Shown piece by piece: positions 240-47,132 of a stretch of DNA of 64,000 nucleotides (positions are counted from its first letter, which is position 1; each line of letters begins with the position of its first letter). The position numbers and the translations under genes are program-made. Where the stretch lies: positions 1 through 64,000 of the IMG/VR virus record IMGVR_UViG_3300014613_000002, one strand, 5' to 3'. The stretch is from a virus. Its lineage: Duplodnaviria; Caudoviricetes. The notes beneath the pieces were generated by a model. That model searched no databases and had not been told where the DNA came from. It worked only from the letters and a program-made list of their open reading frames with translations.

Positions 240-971
240 ATGCCAAGAACAACAAGGGAAGATTTCGAGTTAGAAACAGGATTAGCTGACGATTTTGATG
301 GGTTGATAGTTGGTGCATATTTTGGTGTTAAGTCAGAATATGCTGCTATTGCAGGCACTAGTGACCCAATGATTATGCTCCAGTTGGAGAACCCAGAATT
401 CGAGCAACCTGTAGAGCAAGGTTGGGCTTGTGGTGGAGCGAAGCAATGGGAAATAGGTGAGGGAGGAAAGGAAATTGTTTCTGGAACCCGTCCAGAGAGC
501 CACAGGTTCAATATGAACAGCCGTGCTGGAAAGTTAGTAACTGCTATGTTTGAGCTTGTCGGTGGGGGCAACAAAGTAAAGGGCCAGGAGTTCTTCCAGA
601 AGAGAGACAAGTTCATGACTGAGAGCGGCTTCTATACTGACCTTAATTTCCACTGGAAGAGAGTGCCAATGACCACAGTTAGCGGAGAATCCAGAGATGT
701 GCTGATGCCAAATGCCTATTTGGGTGAGGTCAAGACTGCCGCCAAAGCTACTGCTCCAACAAAGGAAGTATCAGGAGACCTAGTGGACAAAGTAATCGCT
801 CTAGCCGAAGGCAAAACCGCAAGAGAACTGAAGCAGACAGTTGTTAAGGAGCTTGATAAAGCGGCACCTGGGTACAAAGAGATTATTGCTCTGGTTCTCA
901 GTGGCAAGCTAATAGAGGACTTGAAGGCTCAGGACAAACTTACCGAAGGCCCCGACGGAAAATTCATTTGA
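240..971 (+). CDS. hypothetical early protein (possibly ssDNA-binding/recombination-associated)
   Basis: 243 aa ORF after GGAGG; beta-rich N-terminal part, Ala/Lys/Thr linker, helical C-terminus; function is a guess from context. Confidence 0.7.
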   Translation: MPRTTREDFELETGLADDFDGLIVGAYFGVKSEYAAIAGTSDPMIMLQLENPEFEQPVEQGWACGGAKQWEIGEGGKEIVSGTRPESHRFNMNSRAGKLVTAMFELVGGGNKVKGQEFFQKRDKFMTESGFYTDLNFHWKRVPMTTVSGESRDVLMPNAYLGEVKTAAKATAPTKEVSGDLVDKVIALAEGKTARELKQTVVKELDKAAPGYKEIIALVLSGKLIEDLKAQDKLTEGPDGKFI

Positions 972-1006: not shown

Positions 1007-1035
1007 TTGACAAAGGGTGATGAGTGTGATATAAT
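1007..1035 (+). promoter_or_regulatory. consensus sigma70 promoter with extended -10
   Basis: TTGACA (1007-1012), 17 nt, TGn-TATAAT (1030-1035). Confidence 0.9.
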
Positions 1036-1040
1036 AGTTA

Positions 1041-1552
1041 TATTAAGAACATTAAAAACTGGATAGAGGTTAATGAAGCCAATGAGTCCATGCCGTAAGG
1101 ACAAAACTGGGCAACAACAATCGAGCAGTCAACACCCGAAAGGGAAATAAGTCCCAGGCTGCTGGCTGGCAAGGGCTGGCTACCCGAAAGGGCGTGACAA
1201 GCTAATCTGCTAGCCACAGGGACAAAATGCTTGAGGGGTAGGACAGGCTAACTACTAGCCAGCAGGGAATTGCCAGTCACCCGAAAGGGCAGTATCACAC
1301 GAGTTCGTGGGCAGAAGTTATACAAGAGTATGAATGGTCTATGCCTTGAGACTGGCTGGCAATTCCTAGCCTGAGCCGAGCAGTGGTAGGTGCTACTGGT
1401 GGAGGCAAAGGGAATTAAATCTCTGACCCCTCAAAAAATAGGTGTAGCGTGTAGGTTCAGACAAGACAGAGAGTGAGGGTGCAATACTTTAGAAATGGCG
1501 AGAATATTAGCTCATTGGAGTAAAGGCTCACCAGCCCTCACCCTAGTCTGAA
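1041..1552 (+). ncRNA. large structured RNA or leader, unassigned family
   Basis: No ORF >=60 aa; three CCCGAAAGGG hairpins (1135, 1183, 1280); helices 1107-1111/1153-1157, 1163-1170/1209-1216, 1266-1276/1356-1366, 1231-1239/1426-1434, 1456-1462/1546-1552, 1473-1479/1535-1541. Confidence 0.7.
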
Positions 1553-1565
1553 TAAGGAGGAGAAA

Positions 1566-11369: not shown

Positions 11370-12055
11370 TGTCAATTCTAGTGAGTTCCAATGAGCGCAA
11401 GCCAATCAAGCAGGCCCTAGGTGACTTTGGTATAGAAGCTAACATACCATACGACTTCAAGATATTTACCGAGAGGGGAATTATAGCTATTGAGAGAAAG
11501 AGATTCCCTGATGATTTATTGGCAAGTGTTGATGATGGTCGTTTGTCCAAAGAATTTGCTGCCATGCGAGAAGAAGGGGACTATCAGATACTAATATCTG
11601 AGGGCAGAGGAAGATACACCAGGGAAGGAAGACTGCTTTTGGGCAGGAGGCCTAGCAGATGGTTCAAGTCGGGGATAAGGTCGCTGTTCCGCTCTATAAG
11701 GTATGTTGAGGGCATAGACGTGGAATTCACTGACAACATTCCCGACACGGTAGAATGCTTGAAAGGGGTACAGCAATATTTCGACCAAGACAAGCATTTG
11801 TCCATCAGGACAAGGCTAAGCCCTGAGCCAAAGCTGTTCATCTTGACCAAGGAAGAAAGGTATCTTCACTTCCTTCAAGGCTTGCCCTCTATCAAAATTG
11901 TTCGTGCAATGGAGCTGGCAAAGGTGTTCAGGTCACCACTGGAATTGTTTGGAGCTGATATGCAGACGCTGAGAAGTGTTCCTGGGATTGGAAATGTGGT
12001 GGCTGAGGGAATCTACAACTTCTTGAGAGGATTTGACAAGCTGAAGGAAGTGTGA
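11354..12055 (+). CDS. ERCC4 (XPF/Mus81/Hef-like) nuclease with C-terminal HhH
   Basis: YDF...IAIERKRFPDDLLASVDDGRL; VPGIGNVVAE HhH. Confidence 0.85.
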   Translation: MDNAVMSILVSSNERKPIKQALGDFGIEANIPYDFKIFTERGIIAIERKRFPDDLLASVDDGRLSKEFAAMREEGDYQILISEGRGRYTREGRLLLGRRPSRWFKSGIRSLFRSIRYVEGIDVEFTDNIPDTVECLKGVQQYFDQDKHLSIRTRLSPEPKLFILTKEERYLHFLQGLPSIKIVRAMELAKVFRSPLELFGADMQTLRSVPGIGNVVAEGIYNFLRGFDKLKEV

Positions 12056-40274: not shown

Positions 40275-41795
40275 CTATGCCTTTTGAATAAAGATTACTT
40301 CATAATACGCTGGTCTTCCCTCATCTGTGCTCCAAGGATTATGTGTATGGTCGCCAGGGTCACTTAATGTTGTATGAGTATGAGCATTCTCGCTATTATA
40401 AGTATGTGAGTGATTACCAGCAGCCAATTGCGAAGTTGGATAATTAGCACCACCTCCTGCTGCCTCAAAGTTAGTTGTGGTATGTGTATGGTTTCCTAAG
40501 GTGTTCGTAGCAGCGTGTTGATGTGCTCCAGCCGAAGTCTGTGAATGTGCTGAATGAGCACCAGCATTTTGGTCGGTATGAGTGTGGGTATCAGAGCCTC
40601 CTCCCCCACCAGGGTCAACTCCTGCATTTGAACCTCTAAGGAACTTACTCAGCATATTGGGTCTGGTATCGCCACCATCACACTGATTATATCCTACAGG
40701 GATATTTGCCAAAAGACCTGTCCATACCACGATGCCATTTGCAGGAATTGATGTTGCTCCTCCATCGTTAATGATATATGCCACATCATAATAAGCAGGG
40801 AGAGAGGAGGCAACAACTACAGTGTGAGCGTGGCTACCATCATCACCCATAGGATTATGATTGTGGGTATCTATAGTATTACTATTAGCATGAGTATGGT
40901 CTCCAGCATGAGTATCAGTTTGTAGTAGTATAGTGGTATCTGTCCCGATTAGACCATACTCGTCATTATGGGTATGCGTCCAGGTAAAGGCACTAAATGT
41001 ATGGAAATGGGCAGCGGCATTATCCATCGTGTGGCTATGAGCAGCTTGGGCAGTCTCAGTATGTAAATGTGTTGCTGTTCCACCAGTCGTGCCAGGTTCA
41101 GTGACATTTGTATTAACCCCTCTAATAAAGCGAGAGCGTAAGTCTGGTCTTCCATCACCACTATCACAAAGCGACCAGCCAGCAGGTATAGCAGCTAATG
41201 TTCCTGCCCAAATAATTATTAAATTGGCTGCCACTGCTGCACCAGCACCTGCCTGTATAAAAGCTACTTCATAATAAGGAGGACGACCATCATCAGTGCT
41301 CAAGAGATGAGTGTGGTCGAGAGTTGCATCCATCGTGTGTGAATGCACTGCTGAATTTGTTGTGTGCTGATGTGCACCAGCACCATCACCATTAAATCTA
41401 GTTGAGCCATCACTAGCTACTCCAGTAGTAGCAGTCCTATGTACGTGAACGCCTGCACTAACTACTACATGAGTATGAGACTGGTCTGCAGTAGTATGAG
41501 TATGTGCTCCTGCAGCAGTCATAGTAGCATGGGTATGAGTATCTGCTCCACCAGTAGTTCCTGCTTCAGTAGCAGCAGGTGCACCTCTTATAAACCTTGC
41601 AACGAGATTGGGTGTAGTACCACCACCGTCACAGAGAGTCCAGTTTGCAGGAATATTACCAAGCGTACCACTCCACATAACAACAACTTCTTGTGCTAGA
41701 GGAATAGCCCATATTACCCCTTTTACCTTAGCTATATTGGCTGCAAGCACTCCCATTATTTTGGCTGGATTAGTCACACCACTTATTTTAGCCAT
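40275..41795 (-). CDS. fibre protein with three tandem tail-collar + HxH repeat units
   Basis: 3x W.G....IP.[GN][WY]..CD....P.[LM]..[RK]F.RG; many HTH/HSH; 3x P[PA]YY.V.[FY]I. Confidence 0.85.
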   Translation of the reverse strand: MAKISGVTNPAKIMGVLAANIAKVKGVIWAIPLAQEVVVMWSGTLGNIPANWTLCDGGGTTPNLVARFIRGAPAATEAGTTGGADTHTHATMTAAGAHTHTTADQSHTHVVVSAGVHVHRTATTGVASDGSTRFNGDGAGAHQHTTNSAVHSHTMDATLDHTHLLSTDDGRPPYYEVAFIQAGAGAAVAANLIIIWAGTLAAIPAGWSLCDSGDGRPDLRSRFIRGVNTNVTEPGTTGGTATHLHTETAQAAHSHTMDNAAAHFHTFSAFTWTHTHNDEYGLIGTDTTILLQTDTHAGDHTHANSNTIDTHNHNPMGDDGSHAHTVVVASSLPAYYDVAYIINDGGATSIPANGIVVWTGLLANIPVGYNQCDGGDTRPNMLSKFLRGSNAGVDPGGGGGSDTHTHTDQNAGAHSAHSQTSAGAHQHAATNTLGNHTHTTTNFEAAGGGANYPTSQLAAGNHSHTYNSENAHTHTTLSDPGDHTHNPWSTDEGRPAYYEVIFIQKA

Positions 41796-42825: not shown

Positions 42826-44172
42826 TTAATCCCACGGGCTTATTATGTAGGCGTCAATGACCCCATTGCTGTCATCGGTAGCGTATGCCTCAAGTGCCAA
42901 TGCGAATCCCTGGTCACCAGCGGCAGCCTTCATAGCTATACAAGCAGTGGTAAATGCCCCCAGTATGTCGTCAATGGCAATGTCAATAGTTCCGTTAACC
43001 TTGAGTACAGCCGTGAAACCCTTTACCAGCACATAGCCACTGGCATCATCCTCAATCGTTTCGGCGACCATGCCGTAAACCTTGTCATCTCCTTGCGTGA
43101 CTGTTGTGGTAAACTCGACTGCTGTCGCTATCCCCTTAATGATTACCACATCACCAGCCACTCTCTGGGAGCCAGAAGTGTTTTTGACATGGATGTAATG
43201 CTTATACTGGATTACATCAATCTCACGGTTGTCGTCTTGGACTATTGTCAGAGTCCCAGCGTCATTGAAGTTGGCTGTCTTGCCTGCATCGTGGAGGTCA
43301 TTGCCCTGGATGATGTTCTTATCGCTGGCAACATCCGATATGTTAATTCCATACCTTGGCTTATTTCCAAGAGCACCTTGCCTGCATACATTATTAGCGA
43401 TGAGGTTGTAGTCGCTACCACCAAGGAAAATATTATCATATGTATTATCTGCTGCCTGCGAATTCTCAAGACAGGTATTCCCTATGATGGTGTTGCTGTT
43501 GCTGTCGACGAGATAAATCCCGTAGCTATTCTCCTGACAAGTGTTGCCAATAATAGTGTTGTTACCGTTGATGAAAAAGTAAATTCCCACCCCGTCATTC
43601 CCCTGACAAGTGTTGCCACTAATAGTATTGTTATTGCTATTGGTAGGACAAATTCCACGGTTGTTCTCCTGACAGATATTGTTCACTATCTGGTTGAAGT
43701 CTGAATTGTCGAGATAAACACCACTATAATAATCGCTGCCGTTATGCCTTCTTGAGTAGACATTTTGGATAAGGGAGTAGTCTACATACTCGAAGTAGAT
43801 TCCACAGTTGCTTACCCTCCCAACACCACCATCAATTTGCAAGTCAGCAATGACTATATGCACCTTCTCAGTACCAGCACCACCCACAGCACTAAGGAAC
43901 ACAAGGTCAGCAGTAGAAGTAGTCAGGATAGTATTCCTACCGCACCCTCTGAGGGTTTGGTAAGAGTCAAGGTCAATTTGGACTTCACAGTTGTAAGTTC
44001 CATCAAGCAGGAATACCTCCCCACCAGTAGCAGGGAGGGCATCCAGGGCTTCCTGAATAGCCAAATGGTCATTTACGCCTGTGCATACTAGGTTAGCCGC
44101 ACTCTTATTCAAGCTATCACTGGCAGCTATCACCAGTGTGGCAGTCATTGCGCCTTTGTTCTCAATTGTCAT
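42826..44172 (-). CDS. right-handed beta-helix (NosD/pectate-lyase-like) spike protein
   Basis: repeated N.I.GNTC..N...GIY coils. Confidence 0.85.
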   Translation of the reverse strand: MTIENKGAMTATLVIAASDSLNKSAANLVCTGVNDHLAIQEALDALPATGGEVFLLDGTYNCEVQIDLDSYQTLRGCGRNTILTTSTADLVFLSAVGGAGTEKVHIVIADLQIDGGVGRVSNCGIYFEYVDYSLIQNVYSRRHNGSDYYSGVYLDNSDFNQIVNNICQENNRGICPTNSNNNTISGNTCQGNDGVGIYFFINGNNTIIGNTCQENSYGIYLVDSNSNTIIGNTCLENSQAADNTYDNIFLGGSDYNLIANNVCRQGALGNKPRYGINISDVASDKNIIQGNDLHDAGKTANFNDAGTLTIVQDDNREIDVIQYKHYIHVKNTSGSQRVAGDVVIIKGIATAVEFTTTVTQGDDKVYGMVAETIEDDASGYVLVKGFTAVLKVNGTIDIAIDDILGAFTTACIAMKAAAGDQGFALALEAYATDDSNGVIDAYIISPWD

Positions 44173-46457: not shown

Positions 46458-47132
46458 TTATTGGGTAGCAGCAACTATCTCCTGTAATCTCAAAACTTGG
46501 CAGGTCGTATTAATCGAATAAACATAATTTATAGTATCACCAGCTGAAACTAGCAAATCAAAGAAAAATAACGACCCTGCTGTTAATACAACCCCATGAT
46601 TAAAAGCTAAAGTTTGCGTATTTCCGCCACGAATAATCGTTGCTGAAAAAACTCCAGCTCCCAAAAAGCCAACTTGCACCCTGAAAAGGCATGGTGTATT
46701 AAGTGGGGCAATAGCTGCACCTAGAATGGCAACGCCCCCAACTACAGCTACGTTATGTACTTCAGCCCGAGCCAGTGGGCTAAGTGGGCTGGCTACTCTT
46801 TTTATCGAGTAAGTATCACCTGCAACAACCGCTGCAGGTAAGGGATTGGTGGCAAAATTCAGGGTGTTAGCAGCATTGGAATCAAGCTCTCTGGTGTATG
46901 AAATGCCGGTAGAAATGTCCAGTATCTCGACCATAGCATCTTCCCATATATTAACCTGCCAGCCTTTGGTAGTATCAATAAGGGTGCTGATAGTTCCACC
47001 AGTAGCTACGCCAGAATCAATGGCAGTATCAGCCACAGTAACAAAAAGACTCCCATCTGGCCCAACTCTAACTGGTATCCAAGTTACTCCTGTTGCTGGT
47101 GTTTCACATCCCCAAATCTTTACTCCTGGCAT
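46458..47132 (-). CDS. beta-rich virion structural protein
   Basis: GVATGGTISTLIDT; C-terminal beta-sandwich pattern. Confidence 0.7.
   Translation of the reverse strand: MPGVKIWGCETPATGVTWIPVRVGPDGSLFVTVADTAIDSGVATGGTISTLIDTTKGWQVNIWEDAMVEILDISTGISYTRELDSNAANTLNFATNPLPAAVVAGDTYSIKRVASPLSPLARAEVHNVAVVGGVAILGAAIAPLNTPCLFRVQVGFLGAGVFSATIIRGGNTQTLAFNHGVVLTAGSLFFFDLLVSAGDTINYVYSINTTCQVLRLQEIVAATQ

Follow-up and report, generated by a model that had tools for sequence, protein, structure and literature searches.

GNRA loops are typical tertiary-contact elements of RNA. The boxB site of phage lambda, which lies just behind the early promoters, is a short hairpin with a G/C stem and a loop in the GNRA fold. 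In phage T7, the map of Dunn and Studier places an RNase III site in the early leader, ahead of gene 0.3. Phage RNAs of the GOLLD and ROOL type are among the least understood RNAs, and each new example adds to the number available for testing. Large phage RNAs of this kind are reported to form RNA-only multimers (10.1101/2024.12.08.627333).

Here we analyzed a window of 64,000 nucleotides, comprising bases 1-64000 of a 74,930-bp IMG/VR virus record that is rated complete. We read positions ~1042-1553 as a structured noncoding RNA that is transcribed from the plus strand as the 5' leader of the operon of a small gene, p94, and that belongs to a lineage-specific cassette and is not a conserved regulator of p94. 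We give this reading about an even chance of being correct.

Genome setting, promoter and coding potential

The phage genome carries a direct terminal repeat of 123 bp. Its annotation is very poor, with few matches to PHROGs (a Cas4-like exonuclease, an integrase, tail proteins, and a protease), and the first ~23 kb, filled by plus-strand genes, look like the early region. The RNA stretch was present in five groundwater runs (X1-X5); the listed runs that contain it are groundwater metagenomes from several studies, none of them recorded as RNA. When contigs from three of these runs (X2-X4) were compared across positions 600-2200, the RNA was found without a single difference, and since the groundwater copies are identical, the population data are uninformative on constraint.

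A sigma-70-type promoter with an extended -10 element lies on the plus strand at 1007-1035 and consists of TTGACA (1007-1012), a 17-nt spacer, TG (1027-1028), and TATAAT (1030-1035). It matched at 12 of 12 positions, with the TG in addition, and was the best-scoring promoter in the first 4 kb; the perfect TTGACA-17-TGnTATAAT promoter claimed in the preliminary description thus stands. Judged from the sequence, transcription would start at ~1041-1043. The promoter belongs to a class with a common extended -10 block that recurs at 12033 and 69488 and, in variant form, at ~66571, and because it is a member of the genome's own promoter class, we argue that it is a working phage promoter. In this early promoter family, GTGTGATATAATA and the bases that follow it are common around the -10 element, beyond the hexamers themselves. 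The sister promoters (12033, 69488, and ~66571) have a start codon within ~20 to 30 nt, which makes a leader of 525 nt exceptional in this tightly packed genome. No terminator with a U tract was found on the plus strand of the leader, and the RNA would therefore form the leader of the p94 operon transcript, unless later cleavage separates the two.

The stretch at ~1042-1553 is noncoding. Between 1036 and 1565 there is no open reading frame (ORF) of at least 60 amino acids, the longest being one of 59 amino acids on the minus strand, and the earlier claim that ~525 nt behind the promoter lack an ORF of 60 amino acids or more was borne out. With TGA read as W or TAG read as Q, no plus-strand ORF exceeded 63 amino acids; alternative genetic codes were rejected, as they opened no longer frame. 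Neither Pfam nor PHROGs gave a signal in any frame of the leader, and a pseudogene remnant was rejected for that reason. An exact look-up of five candidate ORFs of the stretch in a collection of 15 billion proteins found none recorded as a called gene, a word-indexed protein search with a 69-amino-acid frame gave no match, and an HMMER search of 1.84 billion proteins with a 60-amino-acid frame gave a single match, to an unrelated repeat protein. A 25-codon ATG ORF at 1073-1150 crosses the first of the hairpins described below, with GAGG at a poor spacing of just 3 nt upstream; it has no homologues and is probably not translated.

To the left, the stretch is bordered by p243 (240-971, plus strand), an upstream ORF of 243 amino acids. 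It is full length in comparison with 25 homologues of 234 to 268 amino acids, had no match in Pfam or PHROGs, and no locus for it was found in IMG/VR. Its AF2 model (pLDDT, 83.7) has a beta-rich N-terminal part and a helical C-terminal part, and the Foldseek matches of this model were weak and resembled OB-fold single-strand binders (OB/SSB-like). To the right, a Shine-Dalgarno (SD) run at 1554-1562 precedes p94 (plus strand, 1566-1850, ATG at 1566; together 1554-1850). This gene encodes a widely conserved small early protein with 205 homologues at 60 to 89% identity, and it is full length relative to them (92 to 127 amino acids). The AF2 model of p94 (pLDDT, 82.4) is small and helical with a beta-hairpin wing, and Foldseek returned weak MarR-type winged-helix matches (E values of 0.2 to 1); on this modeled fold, p94 looks like a winged-helix DNA binder. 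The fold matches of p94 and p243 do not account for the RNA.

Farther downstream, a piece of ~35 nt at 1941-1979, within the ORF at 1860-2117, reached a summed contig depth of up to 350 in run X2, against ~7 in its flanks, and dozens of contigs diverged on both sides of it, at 1941-1945 and 1975-1979. This piece codes for an AQAEISFKAG-type peptide, and the next gene (ORF 2128-2493) has a similar AQAKISFEAG; it may be a short motif common to many differing genes or a recombination joint.

Predicted fold and the GAAA hairpins

Pair probabilities (P) were taken from a partition-function fold of 1042-1565, and the anatomy described below was taken from the maximum-expected-accuracy (MEA) structure. 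The plus-strand leader had a minimum free energy (MFE) of -170 kcal/mol (z score, -3.06; 1 of 100 shuffles as good) versus -150.1 kcal/mol for its reverse complement (z score, -1.44), so that the plus strand was better by 20 kcal/mol. The core at 1095-1440 reached a z score of -3.62, with none of 100 shuffles as good. Sliding windows of 200 nt gave z scores of -1.3 to -1.8 here, and other sites in the first 5 kb score lower; the thermodynamic case for the predicted fold is moderate, not decisive. Eighteen of the 148 predicted pairs are G-U, which on the opposite strand would be A-C mismatches, and the GC content of the leader is 0.50 versus 0.37 to 0.45 in the flanks. The stretch also holds an 11-nt exact direct repeat (1162/1352) and three CTAGCC-type copies. 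Repeated words of the GCUGGC/GCCAGC type permit several mutually exclusive pairings, and the drawn structure is therefore not unique.

All parts of the fold described here lie on the plus strand. Domain I (1042-1134) is A-rich and weakly structured, with small hairpins at 1060-1090 whose helices have P values of 0.5 to 0.7. Domain II (1151-1223) is a stacked irregular stem capped by the second GAAA hairpin (1183-1192) and built of helices 1151-55/1219-23, 1160-71/1208-18, and 1174-77/1200-03, for which the GCUGGC-type words allow alternative registers; the P values of its central helix are 0.96 to 0.98. Domain III (1231-1434) is multi-branched and closed by the long-range helix 1231-39/1426-34, nine perfect base pairs with a P of 0.91. 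Its branches are 1246-1260, a module that we call module 3, 1369-1406, and 1409-1424. Module 3 (1265-1367) has a 15-bp stem (1265-79/1353-67; P, 0.96 to 1.0) that encloses the third GAAA hairpin (1280-1289) and two small hairpins at 1298-1309 and 1318-1333. Domain IV (1455-1553) is a long irregular hairpin adjoining the ribosome-binding site, with helices at P values of 0.8 to 1.0 (0.80 for 1456-62/1546-52 and 1.0 for 1473-79/1535-41) and a z score of -1.7 when folded alone; it may be a processing or stabilizing element. It ends at 1552-1553, immediately before the SD run, and in neither the MFE nor the centroid fold is this run or the AUG paired.

The sequence CCCGAAAGGG occurs at 1135, 1183, and 1280 and has no further copy in the window or in the 74.9-kb genome. 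Three copies compare with 0.06 expected, and none of 100 shuffles reached three. All three GAAA loops are read on the plus strand, and the hairpins lie 100 to 250 nt behind the promoter. Their 3-bp stems have pair probabilities of only 0.47 to 0.64, and the identity spans 10 to 12 nt, with the surrounding contexts otherwise unrelated. The first hairpin (1135-1144, plus strand), which has a 3-bp C/G stem and a hairpin P of 0.57, is without a supported closing helix.

These results bear on several structural claims of the preliminary description. The identical tetraloop hairpins at 1135, 1183, and 1280 were confirmed and are the sole three copies in the genome, and the long-range 9-bp helix and the final long hairpin just before the SD run were both recovered in the predicted ensemble. 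That each hairpin sits inside its own closing helix held for two of the three: helix 1163-70/1209-16 (helix B, 8 bp including one G-U; mean P, 0.98) and helix 1266-76/1356-66 (11 perfect base pairs, extending to 15; P, ~1.0). The helix proposed around the first hairpin, 1107-11/1153-57, is complementary but has an ensemble P of 0.01, and 1151-55 pairs with 1219-23 instead (P, 0.61).

The three hairpins do not form a regular repeat array. Only the 10- to 12-nt hairpin is identical, the best pair of 29-nt repeats is 72% alike, and the spacing is irregular (48 and 97 nt). A repeat-array RNA, such as CRISPR-like solitary repeats (Racr) or a type III antitoxin RNA, was rejected, as there are no near-identical direct repeats of ~28 to 37 nt. 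Among the bacterial genome contigs, 23 loci (L143-L165) are unrelated tandem-repeat arrays with periods of ~17 to 52 nt whose unit contains the CCCGAAAGGG hairpin; the hairpin is a common building block of repeats and is therefore not diagnostic alone. For the identical hairpins of the leader, recognition by one factor is a better explanation than the demands of folding alone; no particular stem is required for a GNRA loop.

One 12-nt word of the leader (window 1391-1404) turns up again in the tail-gene region at 41546-41557, 44021-44032, and 46995-47006, oriented like the late transcripts of the minus strand, and two of these recurrences are near the 5' ends of tail or fiber genes. We regard this as a probable single chance match to a gene motif that is itself repeated. 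A search for antisense targets found that the longest complement elsewhere in the genome was 13 nt, about the chance level.

Relatives and the cassette

The covariance-model check that had been proposed earlier returned no match at the gathering score in the whole window (Rfam 15), and at E values up to 10 there were only two chance hits of 10 to 15 bits, to eukaryotic long noncoding RNA models. The unmatched families include GOLLD, ROOL, group I and II introns, riboswitches, RNase P, tmRNA, 6S RNA, and small ribozymes. A tRNA or tmRNA was rejected, since none was found by search, and a group I or II intron was rejected because p243 and p94 are each full length and the promoter lies between them.

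A blastn search of 50,697 GenBank phages with the RNA gave no match. In IMG/VR, a pattern of two hairpins had 85 matches, none of them related by blastn or nhmmer, a pattern of hairpin plus junction word had 3 unrelated matches, and a pattern for the junction 19-mer had one chance match inside a coding region. A three-hairpin pattern searched in 185,579 species genomes had 23 matches, all of which were tandem-repeat arrays and none related. By blastn and nhmmer, the RNA was in none of 48 loci with p94 homologues from IMG/VR and JGI metagenomes, where small ORFs are found directly upstream of p94 and there is no leader. It was also in none of five related viral contigs searched as whole records. 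Diverged p94 contigs of other phages begin to match the window, with a jump in summed depth, at ~1555-1564. With its sharp right border at the ribosome-binding site and the RNA missing elsewhere, the promoter plus RNA therefore looks, from the sequence comparisons, like a lineage-specific cassette between p243 and p94.

Two traces point beyond this lineage. An 85-nt core of the RNA (1175-1259, plus strand) recurs with 3 differences (96% identity) in a contig of a sediment metagenome (run X6); this contig is 317 nt long, and its own flanks are unlike the window. A second contig of the same run fuses ~1168-1193 directly to 1358-1380. The other trace came from a pattern scan and is a 55-kb provirus, IMGVR_UViG_3300006226_001677 (L166), which carries an element of ~110 nt (1516-1630) behind TTGACA-type promoters and just before a gene for a ribbon-helix-helix (RHH) protein, the first early gene. 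The predicted fold of the element (z score, -3.1) is a Y-shaped stem bearing a CCC-GAAA-GGG hairpin, and the element terminates with seven U. Between the part of the L166 leader upstream of the motif used in the search and window positions 1190-1279, collinear words gave a chained score of 53.6 versus 30.0 ± 5.0, and none of 1,000 GC-matched natural segments scored as high. Relative to the stem of module 3, the L166 stem has two one-sided and two compensatory pair changes (G-C to C-G and U-G to A-U), as counted in one hand-registered pairwise comparison in which the order of the inner hairpins differs. We take both traces as hints of selection, and the L166 comparison is suggestive of a modular RNA family.

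Positions 1446-1531 of L166 gave a weak match to the Rfam model RAGATH-30 (26.5 bits; E value, 0.004; gathering score, 59.5). The matched segment is the promoter region just upstream of the Y-shaped element with the GAAA hairpin.

Interpretation and comparison with known systems

In the reading that we favor, the strong early promoter would transcribe the leader on the plus strand at the head of the operon that begins with p94. The RNA would comprise four parts: a loose 5' region, a GAAA-capped stem, a multi-branch domain closed over a long range, and a terminal hairpin beside the ribosome-binding site. The three identical ACCCGAAAGGG-type hairpins are putative repeated docking sites for one factor, and the candidate factor would be a protein, in a contact like that of lambda N with boxB, or the surface of a partner RNA. 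The terminal hairpin would mark a putative processing or stabilizing site, through which the mRNA could be separated from the RNA upstream. The preliminary description had proposed an unassigned large noncoding RNA or a complex regulatory leader. The noncoding character, the early-class promoter, the plus-strand fold, the lack of an Rfam match, and the exceptional length agree with that proposal, while the closing helix of the first hairpin fell away. We infer a functional structured leader RNA; as an orphan structured RNA without a known family, it is credible but unproven, and it is a single-lineage candidate with a putative function.

Other explanations account for parts of the same evidence. 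The hairpins could be boxB-like sites in a nut-like antitermination leader, bringing a factor, from phage or host, to RNA polymerase for read-through of the ~10-kb early operon. Their position directly behind an early promoter, where a long plus-strand operon begins, fits this explanation, as do the likeness to lambda boxB, a G/C-stemmed hairpin with a loop of the GNRA fold, and the L166 relative, which is located in a provirus early leader with a stem, then seven U, before the first early gene. However, none of the 14 neighboring ORFs encodes an N-like arginine-rich small protein, and the plus strand of the leader has no boxA-like word, which counts only weakly, as the boxA of the host may differ. 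Across the first 20 kb, shuffled sequence yields more terminator-like sites than the phage does, and the operon is free of them up to ~11.27 kb. Moreover, the other early promoters have no such GAAA hairpin behind them, nut sites need ~40 nt and not 500, and the L166 provirus has a single copy only, and antitermination appears to us distinctly unlikely. Another possibility is a free-standing "ornate" RNA of the GOLLD/ROOL kind that is cut at the terminal hairpin and acts in trans, whether as scaffold, as decoy, or by self-assembly into a particle. The size of ~400 to 500 nt, the multi-domain fold, the phage origin, and the strong promoter are all consistent with such an RNA, and GNRA loops are what tertiary contacts typically use. 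Domain IV is placed like the RNase III site before T7 gene 0.3, and such a site would provide a 3' end in the absence of a terminator. The multimers reported for large phage RNAs of this kind (10.1101/2024.12.08.627333) also favor it. Against it, the RNA matches no Rfam model, has no defined 3' end, and belongs to no family that we found; no tetraloop receptor was recognized by eye, and tertiary docking does not require three identical stems. A free-standing RNA is in our view clearly improbable.

The two remaining explanations place the function in the mRNA or in the DNA. A cis-regulatory leader (a riboswitch, a thermometer, or an element controlling translation or stability) that adjusts expression of p94 and its downstream genes would explain why the leader is contiguous with the ribosome-binding site, with the terminal hairpin ending 1 to 3 nt before it, and why alternative pairings exist. 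The features expected of a riboswitch or other cis-regulatory leader were not found: the 48 p94 loci are without a leader, the predicted folds leave the SD run and start codon unpaired, no U-tract terminator is present, and no riboswitch model matches. Since p94 elsewhere lies directly behind small ORFs, leaderless, and the ribosome-binding site here is free, classical cis-regulation of p94 is unlikely, and for cis-regulation in general we see very little likelihood. Alternatively, the stretch could act as DNA (an origin, an operator cluster, or a packaging signal ~1 kb from the terminal repeat) or be functionless filler left by recombination or gene decay. Its repeated words (the 11-nt direct repeat and the CTAGCC-type copies), the nearby 123-bp terminal repeat, its restriction to one lineage, the only modest local fold z scores, and the winged-helix appearance of the p94 product would all suit an element of this kind. 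The strand asymmetry of 20 kcal/mol with its many G-U pairs does not, and neither do the identical orientation of three loops, the strong promoter reading into the stretch, and a GC content that is above the flanks and not AT-rich. In addition, no frame holds a protein-family remnant, and the core was kept at 96% in a foreign context. We consider a DNA-level element or filler unlikely.

The structured leader RNA could also be part of something larger. It may be the largest known member of an undescribed family of modular phage early-leader RNAs, in which a GAAA hairpin sits in a Y-shaped or multi-branch junction and modules are shuffled between groundwater and sediment phages. The identical hairpins would then be multivalent docking sites that load a factor onto the transcribing polymerase or soak up a host RNA-binding defense or decay protein early in infection. 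This is a conjecture to which we attach little likelihood.

At ~0.5 kb, the RNA is small enough to be transcribed and probed in vitro, its host-type promoter should work in common laboratory bacteria, and the three identical GAAA hairpins are a simple, mutable feature. If the hairpins recruit one factor, they would represent a new phage means of controlling or protecting early transcripts. If they do not, the locus would still document promoter-plus-RNA cassettes that move between phages like protein-coding morons.

Compared with the GOLLD and ROOL RNAs, the leader is likewise large, multi-domain, and phage-borne, with GNRA-capped helices. However, it is smaller and is unmatched by the covariance models of either family, it lacks a terminator and is joined to an mRNA as its leader, no tRNA genes are near it, and it has no family to show conservation; the comparison is one of analogy only. 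The leader has some likeness to the lambda nut sites in that short, G/C-stemmed, GNRA-type hairpins lie just behind an early promoter; in the leader they are repeated, with one and the same sequence. In contrast to the 5-nt loops of known boxB sites, its loops are 4-nt GAAA on 3-bp stems, and the three copies lie inside ~500 nt of further structure; boxA, an N-like protein, and downstream terminators were not found for it. Relative to the leader, the L166 element is only ~110 nt long, has permuted inner hairpins and a U7 terminator, and belongs to a temperate element. Nevertheless, the two share collinear short words, the same stem of 9 to 13 bp around a CCC-GAAA-GGG hairpin, and a location between TTGACA-type promoters and the first early gene, and their possible homology rests on one pairwise comparison. 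The T7 early region differs in that the promoter here comes after two genes, the leader has much more structure, and its sequence has no similarity to that of any GenBank phage. In both phages, however, strong host-type promoters are located near the left terminal repeat, an untranslated leader extends over several hundred nucleotides, and a long irregular hairpin stands immediately before the first ribosome-binding site.
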